From positions 32,001 through 96,000 of the forward strand of contig MHLM01000004.1 of NCBI GenBank assembly GCA_001821395.1: a stretch of 64,000 nucleotides of DNA, read 5' to 3'. Source of the stretch: Candidatus Lloydbacteria bacterium RIFCSPHIGHO2_02_FULL_50_18. GTDB lineage: Bacteria; Patescibacteriota; Minisyncoccia; Phycocordibacterales; UBA6899. Below are positions 36,254-52,032 of this stretch, in pieces (within the stretch, counting starts at the first letter, position 1; every line of letters starts with the position of its first letter). Both the position numbers and the translations under genes were made by a program. The notes under the pieces were generated by a model that worked only from the letters and a program-made list of their open reading frames with translations, had not been told where the DNA came from and did no database searches.

Positions 36254-37240
36254 ATGGCCTCACCTGTCCACTTCGCTTTTCTGGTCAATTCATGCGAAAA
36301 TACCCTCATGGGAATGTTCACTAGTACGCGCCGCATCGTGAGAGCGGGATTCATTAATTTCTGGAGGAATGCTGTTGTCTCCTTATCGGCCATCTTTGTC
36401 ATGAGCATCGCGCTCTTTGTGGTTGGTTCCACGATCCTTTTTTCAAACTTTCTTGATTCAACCCTAGAGGAGATCAAGAACAAGGTTGATGTGAACGTAT
36501 ATTTTAATCCTGACGCGCAGGAATCCGATATCTTTTTGATGAAGCGCTCTCTCGAAGAGCTTCCGGAGGTCAAGTCGATAGAATATATTTCTCGCGATCA
36601 GGCAATCGCGAATTTCAAAGCACGTCACAGTAATGACTACCTTATGACTCAGGCACTCGATGAGCTGATCGATAATCCACTCGGGGCAATTTTGAACATC
36701 AAGGCGAAAGACACGTCTCAATATGAAGCGATCGCCAAGCGCATCAAGAGCGATCAGGAGACGGCCGGTCCCGGAGGGAATCTGATCTATAGTGTTAATT
36801 TCAGCAAGAACAAAGTGGTCATCGACAAATTGACCGATATCACGAATGGGGTTGAAAAAGTATCTTTTGCCATACTGCTCGTACTGATCGCAATCGCGAT
36901 CGTGATCACCTTCAATACAATCCGCTTGGCGATCTATGTTTCCCGCGAAGAGATCGCTATCATGCGTCTCGTCGGGGCCAATAATTCGTTCGTGCGAGGA
37001 CCGTTCATCGTCGAGGGCATCATGTACGGCATGGTTGCGGCGATCGTTGCGACCGCACTGCTTTATCCGGTGACACATTGGCTTCGTGATGCGACACAGA
37101 ATTTCTATGGCGGAGTCGACTTCTTCTTCTCCTATTACATCAATCATCTCAATCAGATCTTCGCCATTTTGCTGGTTGGCGGAGTGTTCCTAGGCGCAGT
37201 TTCATCGTTCCTTGCGGTGCGGAGATACTTAAAAGTTTAA
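36254..37240 (+). CDS. ftsX: cell division permease FtsX
   Basis: N-terminal cytoplasmic segment, TM1, large extracytoplasmic domain and three C-terminal TM helices. The true start is probably near 36308 (MGMFTSTRRIVRAG). Confidence 0.8.
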   Translation: MASPVHFAFLVNSCENTLMGMFTSTRRIVRAGFINFWRNAVVSLSAIFVMSIALFVVGSTILFSNFLDSTLEEIKNKVDVNVYFNPDAQESDIFLMKRSLEELPEVKSIEYISRDQAIANFKARHSNDYLMTQALDELIDNPLGAILNIKAKDTSQYEAIAKRIKSDQETAGPGGNLIYSVNFSKNKVVIDKLTDITNGVEKVSFAILLVLIAIAIVITFNTIRLAIYVSREEIAIMRLVGANNSFVRGPFIVEGIMYGMVAAIVATALLYPVTHWLRDATQNFYGGVDFFFSYYINHLNQIFAILLVGGVFLGAVSSFLAVRRYLKV

Positions 37241-39234: not shown

Positions 39235-41130
39235 ATGATTCAAGAGACCGCTCTTACTATTATGAAAACGGGGGCGAATGTATTCCTCACGGGGGAGCCC
39301 GGGAGCGGTAAAACGCATACCGTAAACGCATATATCCGCTACCTCCGCGAGCACAACGTCAATCCTTCGATCACTGCTTCAACGGGTATCGCCGCGACGC
39401 ACGTCGGCGGGATGACCATTCATTCATGGAGCGGTATCGGCATCAAGCGTGCGCTCACCGAATATGACCTCGATGCGCTGTCCTCGAACGAAGGACTTGT
39501 GAAGCGTATCGCCAATGCAAAGGTGCTTATCATCGATGAGATATCGATGCTCGACGGCAACACGCTGGTCATGGTGGAGGCGGTCACGCGAACGCTTCGT
39601 CGCAAGCACGAGCCTTTCGGCGGACTGCAGATAATTTTCGTCGGCGATTTCTTTCAGCTGCCTCCCATCGCGGACCGGGCAAGCGGTGTTCGTGCGCAGT
39701 TTTGTTTCGAATCAACAGCATGGCGAGTGGCGAATCCCATAGTGTGCTATCTCTCCGAGCAGCACCGTCAGGAAGACACCGCGTTTCTCTCTACGCTTGG
39801 CGCCATTCGCCGCGGAGAGCTCGAGGATAGCGTCTTTGAATATATCGGCGAGAGGCACGTGCTCCCAGGTGAGCATCCACACGACATTCCGCAGCTCTAT
39901 ACGCACAACATTGATGTCGACAAAAAGAATACGGAAGAGCTCGCAAAACTTGAAACGGAAGAAAAGGTCTTTCTCATGAGCACGAAGGGGACGAGCAATC
40001 GCGTGGAGCAGCTGATCAAGGGCTGTCTTTCACCCGAGGAACTGGTGTTGAAAGAAGGCGCATCGGTGATGTTCACCAAAAATAATTTTGAAAACGGCTA
40101 TGTGAACGGCACATTGGGGACGGTGGTGGGATTCGACGAGGACAATGGTTTTCCAATTGTTGAAACATCGGGCGGAGAAAATATTACCGCGCTTCCTTCC
40201 GAATGGGCCGTTGATGATTCTGGGAAAGTGCTCGCCACCATCACTCAGGTACCGCTCCGACTCGCGTGGGCTATTACCGTGCACAAGAGCCAGGGGATGA
40301 GCCTTGATGCCGCGACGATGGATCTCTCGCGCGCATTTGAATACGGGCAAGGGTATGTGGCACTCTCTCGTGTACGCGCATTCTCGGGATTGCACATCCT
40401 CGGCATCAATCAGCGCGCATTCGAGGTGCACCCTCTTGTGCTTGAGCGCGACCTCGCGTTTCACGAGCGTTCGGATGAAGCGGAGGCGGGGTTTCTCGAC
40501 ATGTCGGACGCCGACCTCCGGAAGTTACACGAGAACTTTTTACTCGCCATTGGAGGGAATCTGGCGAAAAAAGAAATCATTGCCAAGGCATTCGGTGTTC
40601 CAAAACTGAGTACGTATGAAGAAACGCTCGCGCTCCTCAGCCCCGGGATGACGCTCGCCGCGATTGCCAAGCGTCGGGACGTGACCGAGGGGACGATCGT
40701 GGGCCATATCGAAGAACTCGCGCTACTCGGAAAGCTCCCGTCGATAGACATCGCCGCCTTTGCCGAGCTTCCTGCGTCGGTGGTGAAGGAGATAACGCAA
40801 ACGATCGAGACGATCGGAGGAGAATTTCTCAAGCCGCTCTACCTTGAATTGGATGAACGTTATTCTTATGAAACGATCCGTCTTGTTCGATTCGGAGCGG
40901 GCATTGCTCCGAAGCAAAAAGACGCCGTCGTTGCGAAAAAAGAAAAGGTAAAAAAGGTGTCACATGAAAAACCCGCAAAGCTCGGAGCGAAGTGGGGAAA
41001 GGAAGAGGAAGAACGACTCACAAAAATGTTCAAAGAGGGAAAGAAGACGAAGGACATCGCACAGACACTTGAACGGCAGTCGGGGGGTATCCGTGCTCGT
41101 TTGAAGAAGCTGGGGCTGATAAAAAAATAG
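39235..41130 (+). CDS. Pif1-family (RecD-like SF1B) ATP-dependent DNA helicase with a C-terminal HTH-like tail
   Basis: Walker A GEPGSGKTH, the Pif1 signature ITASTGIAATHVGGMTIHSWSGIG, Walker B LIIDEISM, FQLPPI and AITVHKSQGMSLD; the C-terminal region is basic with an HTH_40-like shape. Confidence 0.8.
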   Translation: MIQETALTIMKTGANVFLTGEPGSGKTHTVNAYIRYLREHNVNPSITASTGIAATHVGGMTIHSWSGIGIKRALTEYDLDALSSNEGLVKRIANAKVLIIDEISMLDGNTLVMVEAVTRTLRRKHEPFGGLQIIFVGDFFQLPPIADRASGVRAQFCFESTAWRVANPIVCYLSEQHRQEDTAFLSTLGAIRRGELEDSVFEYIGERHVLPGEHPHDIPQLYTHNIDVDKKNTEELAKLETEEKVFLMSTKGTSNRVEQLIKGCLSPEELVLKEGASVMFTKNNFENGYVNGTLGTVVGFDEDNGFPIVETSGGENITALPSEWAVDDSGKVLATITQVPLRLAWAITVHKSQGMSLDAATMDLSRAFEYGQGYVALSRVRAFSGLHILGINQRAFEVHPLVLERDLAFHERSDEAEAGFLDMSDADLRKLHENFLLAIGGNLAKKEIIAKAFGVPKLSTYEETLALLSPGMTLAAIAKRRDVTEGTIVGHIEELALLGKLPSIDIAAFAELPASVVKEITQTIETIGGEFLKPLYLELDERYSYETIRLVRFGAGIAPKQKDAVVAKKEKVKKVSHEKPAKLGAKWGKEEEERLTKMFKEGKKTKDIAQTLERQSGGIRARLKKLGLIKK

Positions 41131-41186
41131 ACAAAAATTTGAAAGCGAGAGGTATTTGACAAGTGCGATAAACTACTGCAGGATTG
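41073..41186 (+). repeat. direct repeat L (helicase 3' end plus a promoter-like 34-mer)
   Basis: About 90% identical to 42906-43018. The 34-nt core GGTATTTGACAAGTGCGATAAACTACTGCAGGAT is 100% identical in both copies and contains TTGACA. Confidence 0.8.
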
Positions 41187-41220
41187 ACGGTAGACATACA
41201 TTTCATTGAAAGAAAATATC

Positions 41221-42831
41221 ATGAGAACAATCGGTTTTCTCAGAGCTTTCTTCTCCATCTTCAAGGAGATGCGCACCTCGTATCTCCCTCCGCTCATGGT
41301 ATACATGGCTGCGGGTGTTTCCGGGATTACTGCCATCGTTGGCACGTTCTACGTGAAGGAGCGACTCGGGCTTTCTGCGGAATTTCTGAGTGCGCTCGGT
41401 TTTTGGATTGGTTTGCCGTGGGTACTCAAGATGCCTATTGGTCACCTTGTCGATCTTCTGTGGCGGTGGAAAAGCGCATTCGTAATTCTCGGAGCAGGAT
41501 TGATTGCGTCGAGCCTCGGCATTATGGTCGGACTTCTTGGTTATACCGATGCGATGCGCGAAGTTGCCAGAGTGGAAGCGTGGTATGTCATCGCGGTTCT
41601 GCTTGCGCCGATCGGGTATGTGCTCCAAGATATCGTTGCGGATGCGATGACGGTCGAAGCAGTTCCGCGCATGAATCTTGACGGCACCGCGGTGAGCGAC
41701 GCCGATCTCAAGCTGATGCACACGACCATGCAGACACTTGGTCGCATTGCGATCATCGGCGGTGGTATCCTGGTATCTCTCGTAAATATCTTTCTGCTCA
41801 CTGGTGTTGGAGATCTTCCGCCGGCGGAAAAAGCGGCTACGTATCTTTTTGTATACCAGCTTGCCCTCGCCATCCCGATGATCTCAGTGCTCGGTGTCTT
41901 GCTTGCATCGGTGTTTCGTTGGAGTGACGTACGGACGCTCGTTGCGCAAGGAAAAACGAAAGCTGAGGCCCGGGCATTTCTCGATCGAGCATGTAAGGCT
42001 CCCGCGATAAACTGGGTGTTACTTGGTGGCGGGCTTGCGTTCGCAATTGCTGCCATTACGATCGGATTGAGCAAGATCGATGGAGGCCAGGAGATTGTTT
42101 TTGGTATCTCACTTCTTATCATTCTCTTCCTCATGAATCAACTCATGAAGGAGATCAGCAAGGAGGGTCGCAGGACGCTCATTGTCACGGCGCTCCTCAT
42201 TTTCGTCTATCGCGCGATGCCGGGAGTTGGACCGGGGATAGAGTGGTGGCAGATTGATGAATTGCACTTCGATCAGGAATTCTTTGCGAAGCTGTCATTC
42301 ATCGGCAGCACGCTCGTCCTCCTCGGGATGCTCGGTTTTCGTCGTTTTATTGCTGAGCGGTCTATGGCATATGTGCTCGGATTCCTGACGGTTGCGGGAA
42401 CGTTGCTGTCGCTTCCGACAATTGGCATGTATTACGGATTGCATGAGTGGACGGCCGCTATGACCGGAGGAGTCGTCGACGCACGCTTTATTGCGATCGT
42501 CGATACGGCAATTTCATCTCCTCTAGGGCAGGTCGCAATGATTCCCATGCTTGCGTGGATCGCAAACTCGGCACCGGAGCAGCTCAAGGCGACATTCTTT
42601 GCGGTCATGGCATCGTTTACGAACCTTGCACTCTCCGCGTCCAGCCTCGGAACGAAGTATTTGAATCAGGTCTTCGTGGTGACTCGTGAAGTGAGAGACG
42701 AAGCGACGAATGCCATCATTACACAGGCGAACTACGCTGAATTGGGAACCTTGCTCATCGTGGCAACCGCACTCGGATTCGTTGTGCCAATGCTTGCCGT
42801 TTGGCTTTTGCGAAAAAAGACCAGTTACTAA
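41221..42831 (+). CDS. multi-pass membrane transporter (MFS-like, about 12 TM; family uncertain)
   Basis: About 536 aa, highly hydrophobic with 11-12 predicted TM helices. Bracketed by direct repeats L and R and followed by a terminator at 42841-42867. Confidence 0.45.
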   Translation: MRTIGFLRAFFSIFKEMRTSYLPPLMVYMAAGVSGITAIVGTFYVKERLGLSAEFLSALGFWIGLPWVLKMPIGHLVDLLWRWKSAFVILGAGLIASSLGIMVGLLGYTDAMREVARVEAWYVIAVLLAPIGYVLQDIVADAMTVEAVPRMNLDGTAVSDADLKLMHTTMQTLGRIAIIGGGILVSLVNIFLLTGVGDLPPAEKAATYLFVYQLALAIPMISVLGVLLASVFRWSDVRTLVAQGKTKAEARAFLDRACKAPAINWVLLGGGLAFAIAAITIGLSKIDGGQEIVFGISLLIILFLMNQLMKEISKEGRRTLIVTALLIFVYRAMPGVGPGIEWWQIDELHFDQEFFAKLSFIGSTLVLLGMLGFRRFIAERSMAYVLGFLTVAGTLLSLPTIGMYYGLHEWTAAMTGGVVDARFIAIVDTAISSPLGQVAMIPMLAWIANSAPEQLKATFFAVMASFTNLALSASSLGTKYLNQVFVVTREVRDEATNAIITQANYAELGTLLIVATALGFVVPMLAVWLLRKKTSY

Positions 42832-42905
42832 GAAGTAACAAACCCGCGTTCGCGCGGGTTTTTTTGCGCTATTTTTCTCTTCCAATGGGTACCCTCGGAT
42901 TGCAA

Positions 42906-43018
42906 TGAACGCCAGTCGGGAGGTATTCGCTCTCGTTTGAAAAAGCTGGGGCTGATAAAAAAAAGACATACATTTGAAGGCAAGGAGGTATTTGACAAGT
43001 GCGATAAACTACTGCAGG
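42906..43018 (+). repeat. direct repeat R, including an in-frame pseudo-fragment of the helicase C-terminus
   Basis: Would encode NERQSGGIRSRLKKLGLIKK against LERQSGGIRARLKKLGLIKK in the helicase. Four of five nucleotide differences in that stretch are synonymous. The 34-nt promoter-like core is identical. Confidence 0.8.
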
Positions 43019-43063
43019 ATGAAACAAGATCGTTTTCTTTGACGAAACTCTAAGGAGTCTGTG

Positions 43064-44053
43064 ATGATCAAAGCATTTTTTGGAGACAAGAAGTGGTTCT
43101 GGTGGGCGTACGGCGGACTTGTGTTCTTGCTCTGTTCGCTCTATGCGCAGGTGCACATGACGGTGCTTTTGAATGACTGGTATGGACGCTTCTACGACAT
43201 GATGGGCGATGTGTCAGCGCACAATCTCGACCAATTCTGGAAAGAGTTGATGAATTTCTTTTACATTGCGATCCCATATTCAATCCTTGCCAGTATTACT
43301 GGGTATTTTACAAGGCACTATGGGTTTGCGTGGAGGGAGGCAATCACTATGAGCTACCTTCCTAAATGGCGGAATGTGAAAATTGAGATCGAGGGAGCAA
43401 GCCAGCGTATCCAAGAGGACGCATCGCGTTTTGCAAAGATCGTCGAGTCACTCGGACTTCAGGTTGCTCGTGCCGTCATGGTACTCATTGCATTCCTTCC
43501 TGTGCTTTGGACATTGAGTTCACATATTCCGCTTCCATATTTCGGGCCCGTAGCTGGTTCGCTGGTGTGGGTGGCGCTGTGCACAAGCTTGGGTGGCATG
43601 ACGATTTCTTGGTTCGTCGGATATTATCTTCCGAAGCTGCAGTATAACAATGACGTTGTCGAGGCGCGCTTTCGCAAGGAGCTCGTGTATGGCGAAGATG
43701 ATAAGCAAAATCACGCGTCGATTCCGACACTACTCGAGATGTTCACCAGCGTGCGACTCAACTATCGGCGACTGTTCCTGCATTACGGGTATTTTGATCT
43801 CTGGTCTAATTTGTACGGTCAGATTATGGTACTTGTGCCGTTCATGATCGCAGGGCCGAACCTCTTTCTCCCCGCAGGTACCACAGGATTGATCACACTT
43901 GGAGTGCTGATGAAGGTCAGTAATGCCTTTGATAAGGTGCATTCGAGCTTTTCGCTTTTCATCGACAATTGGACGACGGTGACGGAACTCAGGAGTATCT
44001 GGAGGCGCCTGCATGAGTTTGAGCGAAACATCGACAAGCATCAGATGACATAA
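43064..44053 (+). CDS. sbmA: SbmA/BacA family inner-membrane transporter (peptide/antibiotic uptake family)
   Basis: Matches SbmA at NDWYGRFYD (vs NAWYAPFYD), GASQRIQEDASRFA...LIAFLPVLWTLSSHI, RKELVYGEDD and NWTTVTELRSIWRRLHEFE. SD AAGGAG upstream. Confidence 0.85.
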   Translation: MIKAFFGDKKWFWWAYGGLVFLLCSLYAQVHMTVLLNDWYGRFYDMMGDVSAHNLDQFWKELMNFFYIAIPYSILASITGYFTRHYGFAWREAITMSYLPKWRNVKIEIEGASQRIQEDASRFAKIVESLGLQVARAVMVLIAFLPVLWTLSSHIPLPYFGPVAGSLVWVALCTSLGGMTISWFVGYYLPKLQYNNDVVEARFRKELVYGEDDKQNHASIPTLLEMFTSVRLNYRRLFLHYGYFDLWSNLYGQIMVLVPFMIAGPNLFLPAGTTGLITLGVLMKVSNAFDKVHSSFSLFIDNWTTVTELRSIWRRLHEFERNIDKHQMT

Positions 44054-44096
44054 GAAAAACACCGAAGACACAATTCCCGCTTCACGGCGGGGATTT

Positions 44097-44444
44097 TTAT
44101 TTGCACTTTGGTTTTTTGGCCAGCAGACTCGCGTCGACTGCGTCTTCAATCCAGATCGAAAGGAGGTCGGGGTTTTCCATAATTTCTTCAGGAAGCGTGA
44201 AATAGCTCAGCGTTACCTTTTTTCCTTTTGCTTTGTACACAAAAGGCGTGCTCCCATATTTTTCGTATTGCGATTGATTAACCCCATCAACTTTGAAATA
44301 GAGTACGCCATTTAGAACCAGCGCAAAGATGACCCCGTCTAAGTAAACACCATAGCCGCCAAACATGGCACACGAGGTAATGCCGGGAATATGACCCATC
44401 AGGTCATGCACGATAAAATCATGGAATTCACTATTGCGCTTCAT
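44097..44444 (-). CDS. TfoX/Sxy N-terminal domain protein (competence-associated)
   Basis: FGGYGVYLDGVIFALVLNGVLYFKVD matches the TfoX_N core; 115 aa. Confidence 0.6.
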   Translation of the reverse strand: MKRNSEFHDFIVHDLMGHIPGITSCAMFGGYGVYLDGVIFALVLNGVLYFKVDGVNQSQYEKYGSTPFVYKAKGKKVTLSYFTLPEEIMENPDLLSIWIEDAVDASLLAKKPKCK

Positions 44445-44445
44445 G

Positions 44446-44841
44446 TCACCGGTTCATCCACGTGATGGTGAGTTGAAGTATCGTTGCGAAGGAGACCCAG
44501 AGAAAATAGGGTATATTCACATACGCGACCCATCGTGCGATCGGGAATATCGCCCACATCGCCCATGCGAGGGTGATGAGCACGAGGATGATGTCGAGCG
44601 AAGCTAGGGGAAGGTTTTTGATCCCGAATTGGATCGGCGTGAAGGCGAGATTGAAGATGATGTTCAAAATAAACGGAAGCAGCACCGCAAAGGGGATGCG
44701 CTTTAAGTAAAAAAGATAGCCGACGTATCCGAATGAGCCGGCGATGATGAGGTAGAGCACACTCCACACGGGTCCGAATATCCAGGCGGGGGGCGCAAAG
44801 AAGGGCTTCACGAGGGCAGCATATGATTCGTATGTTTTCAT
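44446..44841 (-). CDS. tspO: TspO/MBR family tryptophan-rich sensory protein
   Basis: KPFFAPPAWIFGPVWSVLYLIIAGSFGY signature; five TM helices, Trp-rich. Confidence 0.75.
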   Translation of the reverse strand: MKTYESYAALVKPFFAPPAWIFGPVWSVLYLIIAGSFGYVGYLFYLKRIPFAVLLPFILNIIFNLAFTPIQFGIKNLPLASLDIILVLITLAWAMWAIFPIARWVAYVNIPYFLWVSFATILQLTITWMNR

Positions 44842-44941: not shown

Positions 44942-45014
44942 TGCGGGTTCGTCTAATGGTAGGACATCGCCCTCTGGAGGCGAGTATTGGGGTTCGAGTC
45001 CCTGACCCGCAGCA
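44942..45014 (+). tRNA. tRNA-Gln(CUG)
   Basis: U1-A72 acceptor (TGCGGGT/ACCCGCA), anticodon stem TCGCC/GGCGA with loop CTCTGGA, T-arm TGGGG-TTCGAGT-CCCTG, G73. Followed by hairpin GAAAACACCCC-ttttaat-GGGGGTGTTTTC. Confidence 0.85.
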
Positions 45015-45051
45015 AATGAAAACACCCCTTTTAATGGGGGTGTTTTCATTT

Positions 45052-45189
45052 GCGAGGAGAGGAAGCCATCTGCATGGCTTCCGGCAGGGACTCGAAGCCG
45101 TTCTCCCATATTTTCGAGACATTCTTATGTTGAGAAAATAGGAAACGGGTACTGACGCAGTAGGCGTCGAGATTCCCTGACCCGCAGCA
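45052..45189 (+). repeat. tRNA-3'-end mimic mini-element, instance 2 (downstream of tRNA-Gln), carrying module B
   Basis: Hairpin GGAAGCCAT-CTGC-ATGGCTTCC; CAGGGACTCGAA, the inverted copy of the tRNA-Gln T-loop/T-stem; module B at 45097-45171, about 97% identical to 1549-1625 in the opposite orientation; then ATTCCCTGACCCGCAGCA, the tRNA-Gln T-stem/acceptor 3' strand. Confidence 0.55.
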
Positions 45190-45234
45190 GCCGCACAAAA
45201 CCACTCTGTATGGAGTGGTTTTGTTTTGCGGTTG

Positions 45235-45442
45235 CTCGCGGGTCAGGGACTCGAAAGACGGAGGCGGTCTACGCCGCCACTTTCCTAAGTGCGGTGTCGC
45301 CGAGCGACATTGTTTTCTTATGAGTAAGCGAGTTAGAAAACAAGAAGTACTCTTGTGGTGCCGGGGTCGAGAGCACTTAGGCTTTTGGCTGCCTTGCGCC
45401 AAAATATTTAGTGACTCGTGATCAAGTTTGACCCGTAGACAT
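45235..45442 (+). repeat. second tRNA-Gln-derived mini-element with a different insert (module C)
   Basis: CTCGCGGGTCAGGGACTCGAA (inverted copy); an insert starting AGACGGAGGCG, as at 2217-2326 in reverse complement; a degenerate terminal copy TTTGACCCGTAGACA. Preceded by a long hairpin at 45175-45232 built from the tRNA-Gln 3' end and its complement. Confidence 0.4.
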
Positions 45443-45547
45443 GTCGTGCTCTTATGATGCGCGTTCTTTTTTAAAAAATATTTTGAGAACAAAAAGAAGC
45501 CTATTTTGTGGTTAAAAAAACCGCAAGCCTTTACTTGCGGTGATATT

Positions 45548-45826
45548 TCAGGGAACACTAATGGTATTGCGGCCGAATGGCCACGACGTGCAGACATAAA
45601 GGGTTATACTTTTTCCTTGCGGCGAAGTTGCCGAGACAGTTAGGCGCGCCGAGTCGCCTCGTACACAACCAGACATGATAAGTATTGATTTGTCGATGAC
45701 TTTTATGTTCGTATAGCCGAACGGCTCGAGTGTCTGGTTGGCGATGTCATCATTTACAAAATAGCCCCGGGTGCCAAGCGCAAGTATCATCAACAATGTG
45801 AATGCTACGCCGATTTTGTGTAACAT
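45548..45826 (-). CDS. small secreted hypothetical protein
   Basis: GGAGGG SD 8 nt upstream of the ATG; signal-peptide-like MLHKIGVAFTLLMILALGTRG; terminator at 45500-45540. Confidence 0.45.
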   Translation of the reverse strand: MLHKIGVAFTLLMILALGTRGYFVNDDIANQTLEPFGYTNIKVIDKSILIMSGCVRGDSARLTVSATSPQGKSITLYVCTSWPFGRNTISVP

Positions 45827-46040
45827 AGACAAAACCCTCCTCGTGAACAAACCGCCATAAATAGTACACCAGTAGCTTTGAGAGTCAAGAATGATCAGAA
45901 AATGTAGCAAGTGCACCTAGTGCTCTTCGTATCAGATATATCGACACCAAGTCATCCGACCAAGGTGGGCTTGACTGACCACGGTTTTATCTAGGGTCGG
46001 CCAGCTTTTAAAAACAGAAAAGCGGTATAATTCAGAGTAT

Positions 46041-46394
46041 ATGAATATTTCTAAGAAAAAATTTGTTGCCCTCTTCCTCATTTCTGCGTTTGCCTTTCAA
46101 TTCATCTCCAACTCACTTTTTGGGTCAGACGTTCGACTCTTTCCTCAGAAAGGGGAGTCTTTGTTGGGGACGGATCCACAAATAGGCTGGAAGAGTGCCG
46201 GATACAAAATTCAATTGCCTATCAAAATTGTTTTGATGGGACCCATGCTGCTTTCTACTGATTTTTTGCGAGATGATCCACCACCTCCATTTGTTGCCGC
46301 TGTATTTGCTCTCTACTGGTCGATCCTTGCCTTATTTATTTACTATCTTATCGGTATTATAAGTAGAAGACATCCTCTATGTGTTTCTGCTTGA
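46041..46394 (+). CDS. hypothetical membrane/secreted protein
   Basis: 117 aa with N- and C-terminal hydrophobic segments. Confidence 0.35.
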
Positions 46395-46548
46395 GTGCTT
46401 GGGTAATTTTGTGAGCAAGGAGGAGAGATGGGTTATATCTGTTTTGTTCAAGCGAAATAATTGTTTGTCTGGTTACTCCTGCAAGTTCAGCAAGTTTTTC
46501 TTGCGTAAGGTTTAATTTATTTCGATAAAGAGCAATGTTTGTTTCCAT
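46357..46548 (-). CDS. XRE-family HTH transcriptional regulator
   Basis: 63 aa, [35 protein letters not shown]: a classic Cro/C1-type HTH. Confidence 0.8.
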
Positions 46549-46550
46549 TT

Positions 46551-46979
46551 TTAATTTTTCTTATCTAAATAGAAATTTGAAGCGGCTTTAACGATAGTAC
46601 CAACGATGAGAGCTAATAAGATCACCGGATCAACTCTCGTGATCTCGTTTACAACAATGCCTGCGGCAATCTGATAACCGATGCCTGCGGTGAGCACTAC
46701 TAAGATAGCCCAAAGGGCATTTCGCTCAGAGATCGCTTCGTGTATTATATCCCGCTCGTCTTTCGGCACATGAACCATCATAGCTATGAAATCGATACCA
46801 AAAACGATCGCCCACAATGAGAGCAATACTACTTGCGTTGACCCAATGACATTCATTTCAGTTATGACAATTATCGGCAGTATCATAACGACAATATATG
46901 CCCAGCCTTGCCAAGTAGAAGGTGTCAGCCCCCAGCCCGTATACTTTCTTCTTTTGAACCACTCCGGTTTTGCGATCAT
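46551..46979 (-). CDS. DUF2975-like multi-TM membrane protein (usual partner of small XRE regulators)
   Basis: Four TM helices. Its start follows 3 nt after the XRE gene stop; the start was chosen at MIAKPEWF (the ORF is open to 47036). Confidence 0.45.
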
Positions 46980-47278
46980 ATAATTATGTTTATTACTAAT
47001 GTAATATATACTATACGTAAAATATATATTACACAAGCGCTATTGCGGATAACTTGCATTACGGGTAAAAGTTTCACTGCGGATATTGAATGCTAAGTCA
47101 GGAGATCGTTTTGGGCGGTCTTCCGGGGTGCCTCTTCGTGAGACCCTGAAAGGTAGTTTGTAGGGCAATGCGTCGTCTTCACTCCATCTTTTTCGCCTCT
47201 AATATTTATGCTTCTTCTAACTTAAATAGGTTCCAGTTTGTTCCTGACGCGCAGTATTTTTTTTGGTATGCTCATTTT

Positions 47279-47605
47279 ATGAAGATAGTAAATCCAAGAG
47301 TCGTCCCTGATGTAGCTCAAAAATATATCATCGCCAAGATTTTCAATAGCGATGAACTTCTGCTTTGGGGCGATCCAGAAATCGAATGGCATAAGGACAT
47401 TGCAGAAGAAATGGGTGACGCAGGCCTCGTTGTTGAATGGGTAAGGGGAGGAGGAAGATTGAAATTCGTGACTGATTCGAAAACTATTTATGTCTGGGGT
47501 AAAAGTAGTATGTATGGAGCCGCGTCATTTCGGGAAGCGAAGAACATTTTGAGGATCGCTTATTCTGACTATGACATTCTTAATGAGATCCCTCCAGAAG
47601 AATAG
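47279..47605 (+). CDS. hypothetical protein
   Basis: ORF open from 47168, with the start chosen at MKIVNPR; no known motifs. Confidence 0.35.
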   Translation: MKIVNPRVVPDVAQKYIIAKIFNSDELLLWGDPEIEWHKDIAEEMGDAGLVVEWVRGGGRLKFVTDSKTIYVWGKSSMYGAASFREAKNILRIAYSDYDILNEIPPEE

Positions 47606-47684
47606 TTCCAACGTCGTCCCCTGCATCTAATTTGATAAATGCGCTAATCTTGCTGATTGGCATTTTTTAAAGCCAATGTCTGTT

Positions 47685-47990
47685 TTATGAAAAATCTCGT
47701 TTCCCTTCCCAGGGGATACCCCCGTAGTCCAATAATAGTTCTTCACCAGATCGAATATCTCTTGAGGAGATAAAATAAAATTTATCTCCATTTTGTAACA
47801 GCCCTATGTTGGGATCTTGTGAATGATTTATTTTCTCTCCGAGGCTCGTTCTCGCATAATCCACATCAGGATTTCCCGTGGTGCTAATTCTTTTGAATCC
47901 TAACCCGATATTCTCACCGCAGACGATATTATCTCTAGTGAAAACTCCATGCCCCGCAATATTTGATCCCTTTATTTCGAGGTTGACCAT
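47685..47990 (-). CDS. minimal SET-domain protein (putative protein-lysine methyltransferase)
   Basis: 101 aa with NHSQDPN (SET NHSC(D/N)PN motif) and a C-terminal GEELLLDYG (SET ELxFDY motif). Confidence 0.6.
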   Translation of the reverse strand: MVNLEIKGSNIAGHGVFTRDNIVCGENIGLGFKRISTTGNPDVDYARTSLGEKINHSQDPNIGLLQNGDKFYFISSRDIRSGEELLLDYGGIPWEGKRDFS

Positions 47991-48020
47991 TGCTTTGATT
48001 ATAGCTTTTTGTTAATTTCC

Positions 48021-48506
48021 TCATCGTCTCCATCCCGCATCATCGAATCGTGCGCCATCTCCGTTGAGGTATTTTTGCATCATTTCCTTTGCTGGCCCTC
48101 GGCGCACCCATGCATCATTGACTCCCGTCATGTCGACAAGAATACCTGCAGTGATGATTGCAACAATGAATCCCGCGATGATGATCTTGAAATCTATCTT
48201 GTAGGAAAAATCATAGCGTCGGAGCAACCATATTCCGAGAACGAGTCCGAGTATCGCAAATACGGGCGCCCACCACGGGAAACTCGAAAGAAATTGCTCA
48301 AGGCGATATTCTCCCATTGGTCCGTGCGACCGAGAAAGAAAACGCAGTAATCCAAAAAGGAAAACTGAGACAACTATTGAAGAGACCAACCCCAAGAAGG
48401 TGAGTAGTGATCCGAGAATAAAGTATATCTTTGGGCGGGGTTTTATCTGCTCACCATGGATCTTTCCCATGATGGTGTCGGTGATGTTGTTTAATTCTTT
48501 TGACAT
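48021..48506 (-). CDS. membrane protein, putative anti-sigma factor
   Basis: Immediately downstream of, and overlapping, the ECF sigma gene; N-terminal cytoplasmic segment followed by four TM helices. Confidence 0.4.
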   Translation of the reverse strand: MSKELNNITDTIMGKIHGEQIKPRPKIYFILGSLLTFLGLVSSIVVSVFLFGLLRFLSRSHGPMGEYRLEQFLSSFPWWAPVFAILGLVLGIWLLRRYDFSYKIDFKIIIAGFIVAIITAGILVDMTGVNDAWVRRGPAKEMMQKYLNGDGARFDDAGWRR

Positions 48507-49033
48507 AAGTGTTTCATTAAGGCTTTTGCGCGACTTACGCGCGTCGCAACGGTACCCATTGGTATGCGCAGGATGTCGCTGATCTCTGCATACGACTTCT
48601 CTTCTATATAATACAACGTGAGCGGTTCAGCGTAGAGGAGGGGTATCTGTTCGAGGCACTTCGTCACCATCTCCACTGTTTCTTTTTGCTCGAATTCCTT
48701 TTCGATGTCTTCATCACTTACAAAATCCGCAGTATCCAAGAGAGGGACTTCACTCGGATATTTTTTGATGATGTTGAGTGCCACATTATGTGCAATACGA
48801 TATATCCAGCTCGAAAATTTCTTTTTTACGTCAAAACCGTTGAGATTGATGTACGCGTTAATGAAGGCTTCCTGGACGACGTCGGTCGCCATGTGTTCAT
48901 CCTTGATGAGGTGAGTGACGTAGCGGAGTAGTTTGTGTTGATATCGCTCAATGAGTATAGCGTAAAGATCCCGATCAGTTGATCGAACTTTTTCAACTAT
49001 TGCTTCATCTGAAAGTTTTTCGTTCTCGTCCAT
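48491..49033 (-). CDS. ECF-type RNA polymerase sigma-70 factor
   Basis: Region 2 (YRIAHNVALNIIKK) and region 4 HTH (YAEISDILRIPMGTVATRVSRAKALM); 180 aa. Confidence 0.8.
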   Translation of the reverse strand: MDENEKLSDEAIVEKVRSTDRDLYAILIERYQHKLLRYVTHLIKDEHMATDVVQEAFINAYINLNGFDVKKKFSSWIYRIAHNVALNIIKKYPSEVPLLDTADFVSDEDIEKEFEQKETVEMVTKCLEQIPLLYAEPLTLYYIEEKSYAEISDILRIPMGTVATRVSRAKALMKHLCQKN

Positions 49034-49120
49034 ATAAAAATTCTACTCAGTATTATTGATCATGTACACTAAATCCCCGATCGTGACTCGGGGTAGTGTG
49101 CTTGGGGGTTGTGCTTTTGC

Positions 49121-49492
49121 TTAACGATTCATGTGCCTGCCCATCCCTTTTCCTCGTCCTTCTCCACCTCCAACACCGAGGCCAAGTTCTTGGCGGATCT
49201 TTTGTGCTTCAGCGATCTTTCCTTGCTCTGCCAATTCATGAGCCTCAGCAAATTTTGCAAAGTTCCCCTGATTGATGACTTCCGTTGCTCGTCCTCGTCC
49301 TTGCATCAGCTCTTTCCATGCATTGTAATCCTTCTGCTCAAATACCTTCTCCATTGCCTCATGGCGCTCTGTGCTGTAGTTTGGACCTTTAACGCTAGGG
49401 TCTCCTCTATATGCAAGCGCAGCGCTCGCGGATACCCCGAGTCCTCCAAGGACAAGTGCTGCAACTCCTAAGCCGAATAGTTTTTTGTTCAT
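49121..49492 (-). CDS. small secreted Lys/Glu-rich protein
   Basis: Signal peptide MNKKLFGLGVAALVLGGLGVSASAALA followed by a helical charged region and a G-rich tail. Confidence 0.45.
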   Translation of the reverse strand: MNKKLFGLGVAALVLGGLGVSASAALAYRGDPSVKGPNYSTERHEAMEKVFEQKDYNAWKELMQGRGRATEVINQGNFAKFAEAHELAEQGKIAEAQKIRQELGLGVGGGEGRGKGMGRHMNR

Positions 49493-49741
49493 ATGTGTTT
49501 CTCTTTAGATCAATGATTAATTTCAACCCCCTCCACTATTAATACAAGCTCAGGGAGTATTTTCTTTCATCGGTGAAAATTGCCCGAATTTCAACGTTTA
49601 TTCTCGGTCTTTACGATGGTCTTTTCCGTTGCGAGGGAGGAATGACCCGTGTGAGCTACGATCAGCGGATCGAATGACGCCTGTTGACAGTCGTTGTCTT
49701 CTTTTGACACACTTACTGAGTGAGAAGCAGGTAAAGAAATC

Positions 49742-50815
49742 ATGCATAAAGGGTACAAGCCGATAAAATTCCCGGAAGATGAATCAATCCACGATTATAT
49801 CGTTGAGTGGTGGTATTTTAACGGCCACCTGAAAGATGCAGATGGCAATGAATATCCTTTTATGGACTGTCTGTTCAAGGTGGATATGAAGAAGGTGAAA
49901 AGACCTTTTTTGAGTCGGCTGCGGATCAAAACAGCCTACTTCTCTCATTTCTCTCTTTCGGACCTAACGAATAAAAGTTTTAATCAGCGGATAGCTCCTC
50001 TTTCGCTTGTTTCCGACGATAGCTTTTCTAAACCGCTCCTCTACATTAGTTATATCAATCCCACCGTCAAAAATAGTTACACGAACTGTGTCATTGAAAA
50101 AATAGGTGAGTCAGTTTATCATCTAAAAAATGAGGACATTGATCTCCAGTTAACGTCAGTGAAGGAGCCGCTGCTCGAAGGGGGAAACGGATTTCTCGAT
50201 TTCCATTCTCGGACAACCTATTATTACTCCTTAACGAATCTCAGAACGGTAGGAAAAATAAAGGTCAATGACAAATGGATAACTGTTACCGGCAAGTCCT
50301 GGATGGATCACCAATGGGCGGATGCGAGTTATTCCGTGAATAGGTGGGATTGGTTCTCGGTGCAATTCGATGATGATACGGAAATGGTCTGCTGTGTATA
50401 TGACGATGGCAAGGTCAAGACTTTTTTTGCCGACATTTCGTATCCGGATGGTACAGAGGGGCATTACACTGAGATCGAGATCATTCCTTTGGATAAGCAT
50501 TGGACAAGTCCAAAAAGCAAGGCGGTCTATCCAGTCTCATGGAGCATTACGATACCGGAAAAAAACATAGAGGTGAATCTGACTGCAGTGATCGAAGGTC
50601 AGGAAATGCTTTTTGGGTCAATTAATTATTGGGAGGGTCCGCTTAAGGTGGAGGGTTCATTCGGGGATAAGAGGGTAATCGGTGTCGGCTTCATGGAATT
50701 GGTCGGCTATCCATCAGAGTACAGTAATGTGAGATATCTCAAGGATGAGATCGGTAAGGTCGCAAGTTGGTTTATGTTAGCAATAAGGAAAAGGGCCCCC
50801 ACCCGTGGCTCGTAG
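49742..50815 (+). CDS. CrtC/AttH-like (hydroxyneurosporene synthase-like, lipocalin-fold) protein
   Basis: N-terminal FPEDESIHDYIVEWWYFNGHL matches the P..H...EWWY.TG.L signature of the CrtC/AttH family. Confidence 0.55.
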   Translation: MHKGYKPIKFPEDESIHDYIVEWWYFNGHLKDADGNEYPFMDCLFKVDMKKVKRPFLSRLRIKTAYFSHFSLSDLTNKSFNQRIAPLSLVSDDSFSKPLLYISYINPTVKNSYTNCVIEKIGESVYHLKNEDIDLQLTSVKEPLLEGGNGFLDFHSRTTYYYSLTNLRTVGKIKVNDKWITVTGKSWMDHQWADASYSVNRWDWFSVQFDDDTEMVCCVYDDGKVKTFFADISYPDGTEGHYTEIEIIPLDKHWTSPKSKAVYPVSWSITIPEKNIEVNLTAVIEGQEMLFGSINYWEGPLKVEGSFGDKRVIGVGFMELVGYPSEYSNVRYLKDEIGKVASWFMLAIRKRAPTRGS

Positions 50816-50821
50816 TATAAT
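50816..50821 (+). promoter_or_regulatory. TATAAT -10 box 8 nt upstream of the MFS ATG
   Basis: TAG TATAAT GGTAGGTA ATG. Confidence 0.3.
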
Positions 50822-50829
50822 GGTAGGTA

Positions 50830-52032
50830 ATGAAAAAAGGACCGTTGAATGTTCATCCTGACGTCATAAAATTGGGTATCGTCAGCTTTTTGACCGACCT
50901 CAGTTCCGAGGCGATCTTTTCGGTCTTCTCCCTATTTTTTACCGTCGTGGCGGGTGCTTCAACCTCTCTCCTCGGTTTGATCGAGGGTCTTGCTGACCTG
51001 TCTGCATCTTCGCTCAACTATTTTTCCGGTTGGTTGTCAGATCGCTACGGGAAGAGAAAGCCCCTTGCCGTAGCGGGGTATGGGTTTTCAACGGTGGCAA
51101 AGACGATACTTCTTTTTGGCACATCCGTCCTCGCTCTCGGTTCTTTCAGGGTAATTGAACGTTTGGGAAAAAGCTTTCGAGGTCCGCCCAAAGATGCATG
51201 GCTCGCAGAAATGACGGATGAGTCAACGAAAGGGTATGTTTTTGGTCTGCACAAGGCGATGGACAAAGCGGGCGCCGTGCTCGGTCCGCTTGTCGCATAT
51301 TTTTTACTTCGCGTGCTCGGAGAGAGCACGGGTACGTTCCATGTGATCTTTTTTTTGGCCGTGATAACGGCTGCACTATCGGTCGTTGTGCTTTTGTTCA
51401 TAAAAGATCGTCCGGGTATTTCTCATGAACGCGAAAATATGTTTAAGGCGTGGGGAACATTAAGTCCGCAATTTCGATCGTATCTTATTCCTGCGGGAAT
51501 TTTTTCTTTAGCATATTTCAGTTTCGGGTTTCTTCTGTTGCGGGCTTATTCCATAGGTTTTTCAATGGGTGACGTGGTACTGCTTTACGCACTTTTCAAC
51601 GTTTCGTTCGTCATAATTTCCATCCCGATAGGAAAACTCGGTGACATATTCGGGCGAAAGTACATTGTTGCTTTAGGATATGTTACATATATCATCATGT
51701 CTTTAGGCTTTGTCTTTGCCACTGAAAAATGGGAGGTGGTCATCTTGTTCCTGTTGTTTGGTATTTTTTACAGTATTGATGACGCCCAAAGCAAGGCATT
51801 TATTATGGATATAGAAAAAGACAGACGGGCCACTGCCATCGGCGTGTATAACTTCGTCACCGGCTTGATCTATCTTCCCGCTTCTGTTATTGCAGGCGTT
51901 CTTTGGGTCATGAATCCCGCATATGCATTCATTTTTGCAGCTATCGTCACGAGTATCGCCATGGGCGTTTTTATCGTGTTGCGTCCCTGGAATCAAAATT
52001 TATCACAACAAGATATCACCGAGAACTACTGA
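50830..52032 (+). CDS. MFS transporter
   Basis: 12 TM helices, with the GxLaDrxGrkxxl-like loop LSDRYGKRKPL between TM2 and TM3. Confidence 0.7.
   Translation: MKKGPLNVHPDVIKLGIVSFLTDLSSEAIFSVFSLFFTVVAGASTSLLGLIEGLADLSASSLNYFSGWLSDRYGKRKPLAVAGYGFSTVAKTILLFGTSVLALGSFRVIERLGKSFRGPPKDAWLAEMTDESTKGYVFGLHKAMDKAGAVLGPLVAYFLLRVLGESTGTFHVIFFLAVITAALSVVVLLFIKDRPGISHERENMFKAWGTLSPQFRSYLIPAGIFSLAYFSFGFLLLRAYSIGFSMGDVVLLYALFNVSFVIISIPIGKLGDIFGRKYIVALGYVTYIIMSLGFVFATEKWEVVILFLLFGIFYSIDDAQSKAFIMDIEKDRRATAIGVYNFVTGLIYLPASVIAGVLWVMNPAYAFIFAAIVTSIAMGVFIVLRPWNQNLSQQDITENY

Follow-up and report, generated by a model that had tools for sequence, protein, structure and literature searches.

A short, TM0-less SbmA_BacA-family transporter behind a duplicated promoter-like segment in a Lloydbacteria genome

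The closest described relatives of the protein reported here are the SLiPT transporters SbmA of E. coli and BacA of S. meliloti. SbmA/BacA in the strict sense carries a TM0a/TM0b domain that brings each protomer to eight transmembrane helices, and in the published picture TM0 is the hallmark of SLiPTs and SbmA/BacA is confined to Proteobacteria. A full ladder of glutamates is held to set the proton-driven SLiPTs apart from their ABC relatives (PMC13316013, PMC8442886). According to the 2026 SbmA paper, transport by SbmA is lost or badly weakened when any one of the conserved ladder glutamates is missing (PMC13316013); E269 is absent from the list of mutants in the methods of the 2021 SbmA paper (PMC8442886). 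Recent papers propose that SbmA/BacA is an invention of the Hyphomicrobiales, derived from BclA or YddA. In the literature that we searched, no experimentally characterised member of the NCBIfam family NF009036 was found, nor any paper that mentioned PRK12369 or that linked SbmA-family proteins to CPR bacteria, SAR11, SAR86 or Campylobacter.

The window, by which we mean the whole 64,000-nucleotide stretch of DNA that was analysed, encodes a protein that the first-pass annotation had described as an SbmA/BacA-family peptide importer of a reduced genome, paired with a second transporter under the same control element. An NCBI entry from Candidatus Lloydbacteria bacterium RIFCSPHIGHO2_01_FULL_49_22 (CPR/Parcubacteria), a small-genome CPR bacterium of groundwater, has exactly this protein sequence (100% identity), which bears out the premise of a reduced genome. 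As the gene is a transporter of an ordinary kind that databases already annotate, the direct finding is modest. We consider it probable that the gene encodes a TM0-less transporter of the short SbmA_BacA subfamily and that it lies in a recombinant chromosomal slot with a duplicated promoter. The start codon (ATG 43064) and the end of the stop codon (44053) were read directly from the sequence, and public gene calls give an identical start and a length of 329 aa; a start at the in-frame GTG at 43061 would lengthen the product by one residue. The coordinates of the gene and of the features around it are collected in Table 1.

Table 1. Features of the helicase-TspO region, in window coordinates
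Feature	Position	Strand	Details
PIF1/RecD-like helicase with HTH_40, conserved left flank	39235..41130	+	Pfam PIF1 E 2.7e-32, HTH_40 E 2.3e-21
Repeat copy 1: true helicase 3' end, intergenic spacer, 36-nt block	41070..41184	+	TTGACA 41156-41161, CAGGAT 41179-41184
BT1-family (folate/biopterin-type) MFS transporter CDS, other slot cassette	41221..42831	+	536 aa gene call
Intrinsic-terminator-like hairpin followed by a T run	42840..42866	+	AAACCCGCG-TTCG-CGCGGGTTT; -16.4 kcal/mol, z -2.47
Non-functional helicase 3' fragment, start of repeat copy 2	42906..42963	+	Last 19 codons, stop codon lost; 90% identical to 41070-41127
Candidate sigma-70-type promoter of the SbmA-like gene	42985..43020	+	TTGACA 42992-42997, 17-nt spacer, CAGGAT 43015-43020
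Shine-Dalgarno AAGGAG of the SbmA-like gene	43052..43057	+	6 nt 5' of ATG 43064; read from sequence
Short-form TM0-less SbmA_BacA-family (SLiPT-core) transporter CDS	43064..44053	+	329 aa; Pfam, NCBIfam, 7p34 alignment, AF2, Foldseek
Terminator-like hairpin 3' of the SbmA-like gene	44072..44095	+	-13.9 kcal/mol, z -3.52, 0/200 shuffles as good
TspO/MBR gene, conserved right flank	44446..44841	-	Pfam TspO_MBR E 6.5e-25

The assignment to the SbmA_BacA family is firm. Residues 9-324 of the protein matched positions 1-314 of the 315 in the Pfam profile PF05992, a full-length match (E 2.6e-111; 372.6 bits, cutoff 24), and all four motifs quoted in the first-pass annotation were found in the translation. 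The outcome that the first-pass annotation had named as refuting its reading, assignment to another ABC-TMD family, did not arise: the secondary match to ABC_membrane_2 scored 61 bits. Pfam placed no ABC_tran or other ATPase domain, and nothing beyond the core, in the 329-aa protein. Among the NCBIfam equivalog models, the one for SbmA (NF008306) was failed at 292.6 bits against a cutoff of 492, with an alignment confined to model positions 81-402 of 413, and the one for a 'putative transporter' (NF009036) was passed at 460 bits against a cutoff of 385, with residues 2-326 aligned to model positions 1-324 of 326. The nearest relative of solved structure was E. coli SbmA (7p34; E 1.6e-68 by sequence), to which the alignment was nearly gapless; it covers only SbmA residues 78-395, with residue 7 of the query opposite SbmA 78, and the TM0a/TM0b domain is therefore absent. 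The AF2 model (pLDDT 78.5) has six long helices, the first starting at residue 12, and in Foldseek the SbmA structures 7p34, 9g3f, 9g3g and 9g3d were the top matches (E about 1e-13), followed by Rv1819c and ABCD4. Judged by these profiles and alignments, the protein is a real SbmA/BacA-family membrane transporter, but one that belongs to a widespread, uncharacterised short branch (NF009036/PRK12369). It would not be an SbmA/BacA orthologue, and the description as an SbmA/BacA peptide importer did not survive in that sense.

Five of the six positions of the SbmA glutamate ladder are kept, as E118, E128, E200, E211 and E308; the sixth, SbmA E269, corresponds to Q193, and one helical turn further along D197 takes the place of SbmA Q273. 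In an alignment of 198 short-form sequences, the positions of SbmA E193, E203, E276, E287 and E378 are invariant and the E269 position is E in 197, the rest of the subfamily thus keeping all six ladder glutamates; the combination of Q at E269 and D at Q273 is found in no aligned member other than the window protein. Invariant as well are the equivalents of R190, R280, K281 and R385, and those of D288 and Y116 are each kept in 196 of the 198. At the Y285 position, Y is found in 138 sequences, the window protein included, whose gate and cavity equivalents are R115, R204, K205, Y209, D212 and Y44. In SbmA, mutagenesis has demonstrated the importance of R190, R280, K281 and Y285. The internal gate residue of SbmA, Y368, is replaced by Leu in the window protein; among 79 family members examined, the position is L in 55, I in 22 (77 together), M in one and V in one. 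With Y368 replaced by L or I and TM0 absent, stability or gating may therefore differ from SbmA. About a third of positions in the short subfamily are at least 95% conserved across phyla.

Relatives at 53-74% identity were found in other CPR bacteria, a Woesearchaeota (DPANN) archaeon, Campylobacterota, Desulfobulbia, SAR86, SAR11 and a cyanobacterium. In the phylogenetic tree, the protein falls in a Lloydbacteria-type clade with 100% support, inside a weakly supported CPR group, and a long branch lies between it and E. coli SbmA. The phylogeny that the first-pass annotation had proposed as a check on horizontal transfer thus returned a lineage-specific clade, and the tree points to a gene particular to its lineage that was not recently acquired from Proteobacteria. 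The annotation's further suggestion, that the gene marks the uptake of host- or partner-derived peptides, is undercut by the occurrence of a like short protein in free-living SAR11, SAR86, Desulfobulbia and a cyanobacterium; as the short family spans CPR, DPANN, Campylobacterota, Desulfobulbia, SAR86 and SAR11, it has no special link to host association. Clustering of neighbouring genes at 78 loci returned no neighbour conserved across phyla as a clue to the substrate, and synteny was seen within lineages only. The neighbours at SAR11 loci include NDUS4-like, GcvT-like and Mem_trans genes, those at SAR86 loci alpha/beta hydrolases, and those at Desulfobulbia loci gamma-PGA hydrolase, OsmC and PRiA4_ORF3 genes.

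By its likeness to SbmA, the protein would work as the TM1-6 core of that transporter does. A homodimer would alternate between outward-open and inward-open states, would draw its energy from the proton gradient by way of a ladder of buried glutamates, without ATP, and would import a hydrophilic solute, possibly oligopeptide-like or cofactor-sized. Proton-driven import by a homodimer is likely by this analogy, in which the homodimeric state, the proton coupling, the direction of transport and the kind of substrate are all carried over from SbmA at 40% identity.

The SbmA-like gene would form a transcription unit of its own, composed of a promoter-like TTGACA-17 nt-CAGGAT element, an unstructured 43-nt leader, a Shine-Dalgarno sequence, the coding sequence and a terminator. 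In the candidate promoter, the TTGACA is perfect and CAGGAT agrees with the TATAAT consensus at three of six positions; a consensus promoter scan made no call. The hairpin behind the BT1-family gene is predicted to separate its transcript from the SbmA-like gene. Rfam scans and leader folding against shuffles gave grounds to reject a riboswitch, or any other known RNA element, as part of the leaders: these folded no better than shuffled sequence, and Rfam at its gathering threshold returned only tRNAs across the window and one tRNA only across 11 diverse related loci. A permissive RNA-element scan of 41000-43200 gave sub-threshold matches to the terminator hairpin only. A canonical RF2 frameshift site was sought near 33339 and not found.

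The adjacent MFS gene does share a 34-mer with the SbmA-like gene, as the first-pass annotation had stated. The sequence GGTATTTGACAAGTGCGATAAACTACTGCAGGAT occurs in exactly two copies (41151-41184 and 42987-43020; 0 of 100 shuffles matched), and the identity in fact extends to 36 nt (41149-41184 against 42985-43020). A direct repeat of 115 nt (41070-41184 and 42906-43020) terminates in this 36-nt block and opens with 58 nt that belong to the 3' end of the upstream helicase gene. Between the two copies, identity is 36/36 in the block versus 52/58 and about 17/22 in the adjoining segments, and the block stops exactly at the -10 box. The second copy of the helicase end has lost the T of its stop codon. 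Read in the helicase frame, it differs by six substitutions, of which five are synonymous, a pattern with a P of about 0.005 if a quarter of random changes are assumed to be synonymous. Neutral decay after duplication within the genome is disfavoured by this 5:1 pattern as the source of the fragment's divergence. All six intergenic regions in the alignment, which come from four lineages, have the form TTGACA-N17-CA(G/A)(G/T)AT with a variable spacer sequence; the leaders 3' of the boxes are gene-specific. Because the spacers of orthologous promoters vary, selection does not explain the identity of the spacers here, and a recent duplication or gene conversion, instead of selection, may have produced the 36/36 match. 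No exact match to a 20-nt core of the 36-mer was found in JGI metagenome contigs, and none to a 29-nt core in 80 related loci.

The neighbour that shares this repeat matches Pfam BT1 across the whole protein (59.7 bits, cutoff 22) and scores 49.6 bits against TIGR00788 (fbt), below the cutoff of 216.4; its nearest relatives outside its own lineage are proteins of Nitrosomonadales and Burkholderiales at 63-68% identity. Four related loci bear on the arrangement of the region. Orthologues of the helicase (77-79% identity) lie upstream of a BT1 or an SbmA-like gene in loci L088, L089 and L090, and orthologues of TspO (74-85% identity) adjoin the cassette in L088, L090 and L091. The order is helicase, BT1 and TspO in L088, helicase, SbmA-like gene and TspO in L090, and SbmA-like gene and TspO in L091; L090 is the one contig long enough, of the two relatives with only the SbmA-like gene, for the helicase to be seen upstream. 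A metagenome scan with the helicase for further variants covered 80 loci at no more than 69% identity. Neither BT1 nor the SbmA-like gene followed the helicase in any of them, which limits the slot association to the close lineage. The identical SbmA-like protein is present on 15 contigs; of the five places shown, three that derive from different samples run from BT1 into the SbmA-like gene. An assembly chimera was rejected as the source of the tandem arrangement because three contigs from different samples span the junction and 42870-42905 is unique sequence.

From these arrangements, we propose that the space between the PIF1-like helicase and TspO is a variable slot in the Lloydbacteria lineage. 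The window genome would be a recombinant with both cassettes in tandem, in which the helicase 3' end and the slot promoter have been duplicated ahead of the second cassette. The two promoter copies would then be identical because two alternative cassettes recombined into one slot, and the shared element appears to arise from segmental duplication or recombination.

Other readings of the protein have to be set against this account. A genuine SbmA/BacA orthologue that imports antimicrobial or signalling peptides from a partner or host, as in rhizobia and Brucella, is unlikely. It would fit with SbmA being the best solved relative both by sequence and in Foldseek, with the conserved ladder and gate residues, with a host organism of the CPR that is presumed to depend on other cells, and with the JGI label of 'peptide/bleomycin uptake transporter' on relatives, but it is opposed by the score below the NF008306 cutoff, the missing TM0 domain, the long branch to E. 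coli SbmA and the free-living members of the subfamily (SAR11, SAR86, Desulfobulbia and a cyanobacterium), at 53-62% identity. Moreover, conservation of about a third of positions to at least 95% is easier to reconcile with one shared substrate than with host peptides that co-evolve, and published surveys put true SbmA/BacA in Pseudomonadota only (PMC12003926). The protein could also act as the transmembrane partner in a split YddA/BclA/Rv1819c-type ABC transporter, with its ATPase encoded elsewhere in the genome, although we regard this as very improbable. Split YddA genes exist (PMC13316013), and the ABC_membrane_2 match, the rank of Rv1819c and ABCD4 as the next structural matches and the presence, in 5 of 80 loci, of ABC ATPase genes a few genes away from the homologue all lend it some weight. 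However, those five ATPases occur at varying positions and strands and not as co-oriented operon partners, and a dedicated co-oriented ATPase gene was found neither beside the gene in the window, where the two ABC ATPases pair with an ABC-2 permease and with FtsX, nor consistently in the 80 related loci. The ladder is of the SbmA type, down to equivalents of E203 and E287 that YddA lacks, and the intracellular loops align almost gap-free with those of SbmA, which has no coupling helices (PMC8442886). That the protein has been inactivated or has shifted in function with the loss of the E269-equivalent rung is quite improbable in our estimate. Q193 is unique among 198 close family members, and the severe effect reported for the loss of a ladder glutamate in SbmA (PMC13316013; glutamate-to-alanine data in PMC8442886) would give such a reading its force. 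Against it, several other clusters of the wider family also have Q where SbmA has E269, and the open reading frame is intact, with a good Shine-Dalgarno sequence and a terminator. The window protein deviates at only 2 of 102 columns conserved to at least 95%, where other members deviate at up to 6; this and its identical occurrence on 15 contigs suggest that the protein is not decaying. Its second change puts an Asp four residues on (i+4) in the same helix, and from this i/i+4 spacing only we infer that D197 may compensate for the lost rung.

The pairing of the two transporter genes was the part of the first-pass annotation that held in one half only. The shared element is real, and one could read the genes as a co-regulated functional pair with the 36-mer as an operator or promoter kept by selection, for example for the uptake of related cofactors; both are importers by family, the block is identical where the segments alongside it are not, and it ends exactly at the -10 box. 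This functional module is decidedly unlikely. A BT1 gene adjoins the homologue in 0 of 80 related loci, and close relatives hold one gene or the other but not both. A useless helicase fragment within the repeat marks rearrangement, the spacer is free to vary in orthologous promoters, and the BT1 gene was recently exchanged, as its nucleotide identity to L089 is 96.3% versus 74% in the flanking helicase. We therefore retain the recombinant slot as the preferred account of the locus.

The published SLiPT picture misses a large and highly conserved short subfamily in which the proton ladder is retained and which is common among those free-living and episymbiotic microbes that are the most streamlined. 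Taken together, the observations allow the tentative suggestion that the TM0-less, ATPase-less form with a full ladder is a widespread and possibly ancestral SLiPT, with SbmA/BacA a late proteobacterial offshoot that gained TM0; if the short form is ancestral, SbmA/BacA would not be a Hyphomicrobiales invention from BclA or YddA. The very high conservation across phyla would then point to one common nutrient, most important for streamlined genomes. Knowledge of what the short subfamily transports would supply a missing entry among the nutrient-uptake systems of SAR11, SAR86 and CPR bacteria. The either/or use of the slot by BT1 or the SbmA-like gene might mean alternative routes for one metabolite class. 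The locus would be a clear natural example, in CPR genomes, of cassette exchange at a fixed chromosomal slot, and it illustrates that an identical 'control element' before two genes can be a recombination scar and not evidence of a regulon.

Compared with known systems, the protein resembles SbmA and BacA (7p34, 9g3d-g) in its TM1-6 core, where 40% of residues are identical in the structural alignment, in having no ATPase domain, in keeping the ladder residues E193, E203, E276, E287 and E378, and in keeping R190, R280, K281, Y285, D288, Y116 and L349 of the gate and cavity. It differs from SbmA in failing the SbmA equivalog model, in being without TM0, in the exchange of the gate residue Y368 for Leu and in the Gln at E269 with Asp at the Q273 position, and it comes from a CPR bacterium, whereas curated SbmA/BacA proteins come from Pseudomonadota only. 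With the NF009036 (PRK12369) family it shares a full-length pass of the model and the length and architecture of the relatives in CPR, Woesearchaeota, Campylobacterota, Desulfobulbia, SAR86 and SAR11, and it stands alone in that family (n=198) in its residues at the E269 and Q273 positions. YddA, BclA, M. tuberculosis Rv1819c and human ABCD4 (type IV ABC, ABC_membrane_2) have a homologous transmembrane fold, and Rv1819c and ABCD4, its next-best structural matches, are cobalamin transporters with a large hydrophilic cavity. Unlike the window protein, all four have a fused or partnered ATPase and coupling helices; E. coli YddA is without equivalents of E203, E269 and E287, three of the six ladder positions, where the window protein has Glu at five and Gln at the sixth. 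The neighbouring transporter is like the BT1/folate-biopterin family in passing the Pfam BT1 gathering score and unlike TIGR00788 (fbt) in falling far below its cutoff and in exceeding the profile by about 100 aa in length; the proteins closest to it, from nitrifying betaproteobacteria, are 550 aa long and uncharacterised.

The open reading frame encodes 329 amino acids, a length also given by the public gene calls. AAGGAG lies 6 nt 5' of its ATG, which makes the in-frame GTG at 43061 the less probable start. All four peptide motifs cited in the first-pass annotation were found in the translation, and its family-level call was confirmed by an end-to-end match to Pfam SbmA_BacA (E 2.6e-111), with only 61 bits for the related ABC_membrane_2 model. 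The protein is a member of the SbmA_BacA superfamily and not an SbmA/BacA orthologue. It scored 292.6 bits against the NCBI SbmA equivalog, for which the cutoff is 492, in an alignment that begins at model position 81, and it passed NF009036 (PRK12369, "putative transporter", 326 positions) with 460 bits versus 385. We conclude that the gene adds a member to a known, uncharacterised subfamily of short SbmA_BacA transporters, which carry neither the N-terminal TM0 domain nor an ATPase domain and which are nowhere discussed in the literature searched. True SbmA/BacA proteins have been reported only in Pseudomonadota (Smith et al. 2025, PMC12003926). The premise of a reduced genome was right, since an NCBI entry ("transporter") with 100% identity to the protein comes from Candidatus Lloydbacteria bacterium RIFCSPHIGHO2_01_FULL_49_22, a small-genome CPR lineage. 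The remainder of the window, with its type IV pilus cluster, LigA, GatA, class A PBP, release factor and FtsEX, looks like a typical CPR genome. No support was found for the functional proposal, that of an SbmA-type importer of antimicrobial peptides linked to host dependence and under common control with a neighbouring transporter.

Scanning one genome per species gave at least 577 relatives, the best 80 of which (53-74% identity) belong without exception to the short type. These 80 come from CPR (Lloydbacteria, other Parcubacteria, Niyogibacteria, Sungbacteria and Saccharibacteria), Campylobacterota, Desulfobulbia, one Merismopediaceae cyanobacterium, SAR86, many Pelagibacteraceae, Devosia, Rhodospirillaceae and Bdellovibrionales; one Woesearchaeota protein is among the top protein matches. 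Because the family is common in free-living plankton, uptake of partner-derived peptides is not implied by the mere presence of the gene. In a neighbour-joining tree (63 taxa, 100 bootstraps), the window protein falls within a 100%-supported clade of Lloydbacteria-type sequences, itself placed with weak support (25-49%) inside a group of CPR and Woesearchaeota, and E. coli SbmA sits at the end of a long branch. This placement and the long branch indicate a lineage-specific gene and answer the question of recent import from proteobacteria in the negative. Horizontal transfer has occurred elsewhere in the family, as with the cyanobacterial sequence nested within Desulfobulbia.

Several relatives have features of their own. 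One homologue of 401 aa (P0050, 61% identity) has an N-terminal DnaJ domain (PF00226) fused to the short transporter core. A recurrent gene neighbourhood was seen in 29 loci, including L040 and almost all from Pelagibacterales (positions about 3800-7900): in SAR11, a 94-aa NDUS4-like gene lies directly 5' of the homologue, its stop overlapping the transporter start; about a dozen of the loci also have, farther 5', genes for a GcvT-family aminomethyltransferase and an alpha/beta hydrolase; and a Mem_trans (AEC-type) permease follows 3' in 25. In seven loci from Desulfobulbia and one cyanobacterium (L010, L011, L017, L019, L020, L021 and L027), a PF05908 poly-gamma-glutamate hydrolase family gene occurs no more than three genes away from the homologue. 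The cyanobacterial transporter, inside the Desulfobulbia clade and with this neighbour, suggests that the neighbourhood was transferred.

Exhaustive searching of 1.84 billion cluster representatives with HMMER returned 198 clusters at E <=1e-30. When 117 of the best representatives, each of at least 300 aa, were aligned, about eleven had an N-terminal extension long enough for TM0; the rest begin about 12 residues ahead of TM1. In a neighbour-joining tree rooted on YddA, built without bootstrap values from a sample biased toward the query, the longer forms grouping with E. coli SbmA are nested among short forms, and a few other extended proteins are scattered elsewhere. Most of the sampled family lacks TM0, and such TM0-less forms are common where genomes are streamlined. 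We consider this prevalence the most interesting lead of the analysis, pending a proper phylogeny and biochemistry.

The gene shares its upstream sequence with the adjacent BT1-family MFS gene. The 34-mer reported for both occurs exactly twice, and not at all in shuffled sequence. The identity extends to 36 nt, the final part of a 115-nt direct repeat with a constant spacing of 1836 nt. Copy 1 opens with 58 nt of the PIF1-like helicase gene, namely its last 19 codons and the beginning of its stop codon. Copy 2 carries a dead helicase fragment that shares 90% identity with copy 1 and has lost the T of the stop codon. Of the six substitutions in this fragment, five are synonymous when read in the helicase frame, so that the fragment diverged while still coding, in another gene copy or lineage, and was truncated afterwards. 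In an alignment of six intergenic regions, TTGACA and CA(G/A)(G/T)AT are invariant and 17 nt apart, the spacer between them varies, and the leaders 3' of the -10 box are gene-specific, of BT1 or SbmA type. Invariant boxes about a variable spacer are the footprint expected of a sigma-70-type promoter; the site is a candidate with a weak -10 box, and a consensus promoter scan made no call at this TTGACA/CAGGAT-type site. Since a terminator-like hairpin follows each gene, the two appear to be independent transcription units whose candidate promoters are identical and whose leaders differ. Of the proposed shared control element, the identical copies therefore stand. The co-regulated pairing is not supported, as a BT1 gene lies beside the homologue in none of 80 related loci and the spacer varies; identity of the spacer in the window is best explained by recency or gene conversion, and not by selection for co-regulation. 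The motif AGACA(A/T)A(A/C)ATTT precedes both 36-mers and has a third occurrence in the BT1 leader, past copy 1; it may mark recombination junctions.

Features of the window discussed in the text
Feature	Position (strand)	Remark
Type IV pilus cluster	3982-17265	PilM-like, two T2SSE ATPases, T2SSF platform protein, prepilin peptidase
ABC-2 transporter pair	12767-14406	embedded in pilus cluster; ABC ATPase with permease
ABC ATPase with FtsX	34639-37240	
PIF1/RecD-like helicase gene	39235-41130 (+)	
AGACA(A/T)A(A/C)ATTT	41130-41141	
36-nt block, copy 1	41149-41184	
AGACA(A/T)A(A/C)ATTT	41192-41203	
BT1-family MFS gene	41221-42831 (+)	
Hairpin and T run after BT1	42840-42866	strong, -16.4 kcal/mol
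AGACA(A/T)A(A/C)ATTT	42964-42975	
36-nt block, copy 2	42985-43020	
SbmA-like gene	43064-44053 (+)	ATG start
Hairpin after SbmA-like gene	44072-44095	z -3.5
TfoX_N-domain gene	44097-44444 (-)	
TspO gene	44446-44841 (-)	
tRNA-Gln	44942-45013	directly after TspO
Low-GC stretch	46-48 kb (region 44942-50000)	GC 0.405 vs about 0.50 elsewhere
CrtC-like lipocalin-domain gene, then MFS_1 transporter	49742-52032	same strand

Gene order in related genomes points to the origin of this arrangement. L088 (GCA_043737875.1) has helicase, BT1 and TspO; L090 (GCA_043720495.1) has helicase, SbmA-like gene and TspO; and L091 has the SbmA-like gene followed by TspO. The helicases of L088, L089 and L090 are each 77-79% identical to that of the window. 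The slot is thus variable, with either BT1 or the SbmA-like gene as its cassette. Helicase, BT1, helicase fragment with its promoter copy and SbmA-like gene follow one another in the window and in three of the five same-species contigs shown, and TfoX then TspO lie downstream in four of the five. On these gene orders, the helicase-TspO interval appears to be a recombination-prone slot and the window genome a recombinant with both cassettes. The BT1 protein (536 aa) passes Pfam BT1 and falls far below the fbt subfamily cutoff. Between window 41250-42850 and the Lloydbacteria-like contig L089 (5030-6630), nucleotide identity is 96.3% from 41250 on, compared with 74% in the adjacent helicase and 68% in the intergenic region, with a sharp breakpoint about 30 nt inside the BT1 coding sequence; this looks like recent exchange of the cassette between diverged Lloydbacteria lineages. 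Outside its own lineage, the nearest relatives of BT1 are uncharacterised 550-aa proteins (63-68% identity) of Nitrosospira, Nitrosovibrio, Nitrosomonas and other Burkholderiales, a likeness that suggests inter-phylum transfer in either direction.

The surroundings of the slot merit brief description. The TfoX_N-domain gene lies between the SbmA-like gene and TspO in this genome only, being missing at the matching position in L088, L090 and L091. Elsewhere among bacteria, proteins of the TfoX type are regulators of competence, and the type IV pilus cluster lies in the same window. The low-GC stretch beyond the tRNA holds small ORFs, mostly of unknown function, along with HTH_3, Ocnus, SET-domain and ECF-type sigma-factor genes, and may be an island adjoining the slot. 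The CrtC-like and MFS_1 genes form another small transporter unit in the variable region.

The window protein has no ATPase domain. Both ABC ATPases of the window have partners of their own, an ABC-2 permease and FtsX (Table), and such genes occur near the homologue in only five of 80 related loci, at varying positions and on varying strands. With no ATPase partner evident in these loci and a largely intact ladder of buried glutamates, the protein would most likely work by the SbmA mechanism of proton-driven import: a homodimer would alternate between outward- and inward-open states, protonation of the ladder would drive this cycle, and a hydrophilic solute would be imported.

Residues were compared in an alignment of 198 short-form sequences with E. 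coli SbmA and the membrane domain of YddA, numbering the window protein from its ATG. Ladder residues E193, E203, E276, E287 and E378 of SbmA (E118, E128, E200, E211 and E308 in the window protein) are invariant among the 198, as are the counterparts of R190, R280, K281 and R385. D288 and Y116 are each kept in 196, and position Y285 is Tyr in 138 (Y209 in the window protein). These seven residues outside the ladder are each discussed or mutated in the SbmA structure paper. The internal gate Y368 is Leu or Ile in 77 of 79 short-form sequences examined. At the sixth rung, E269, 197 of the 198 sequences have Glu; the sole exception is the window protein, with Q193, which is also alone in having Asp (D197) four residues on, where the others have Gln (SbmA Q273). 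A relative 86% identical to the window protein (P0002) retains E and Q at these positions, and several clusters of the wider family likewise have Q at the E269 rung. Q193 and D197 are its sole deviations at 102 columns conserved at 95% or more, at which other short-form members have up to six; we infer a carboxylate displaced by one helical turn (i to i+4) and not decay.

Among solved structures the best match is E. coli SbmA (E 1.6e-68; residues 7-326 versus SbmA 78-395). An AlphaFold2 model from 66 sequences (mean pLDDT 78.5) has six long helices (12-48, 55-103, 114-152, 166-212, 220-267 and 279-325), and Foldseek against the PDB ranked SbmA structures first (40% identity), followed by the cobalamin transporters Rv1819c and ABCD4. 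SbmA residues before about 78 form TM0a and TM0b, a peripheral domain reported as a novel element of the SLiPT fold (PMC8442886, PMC13316013); unlike E. coli SbmA, the window protein lacks it. YddA, in contrast to the short forms, lacks counterparts of E203, E269 and E287, in agreement with the published argument that the proton-driven branch is distinguished by a complete ladder (PMC13316013, PMC8442886).
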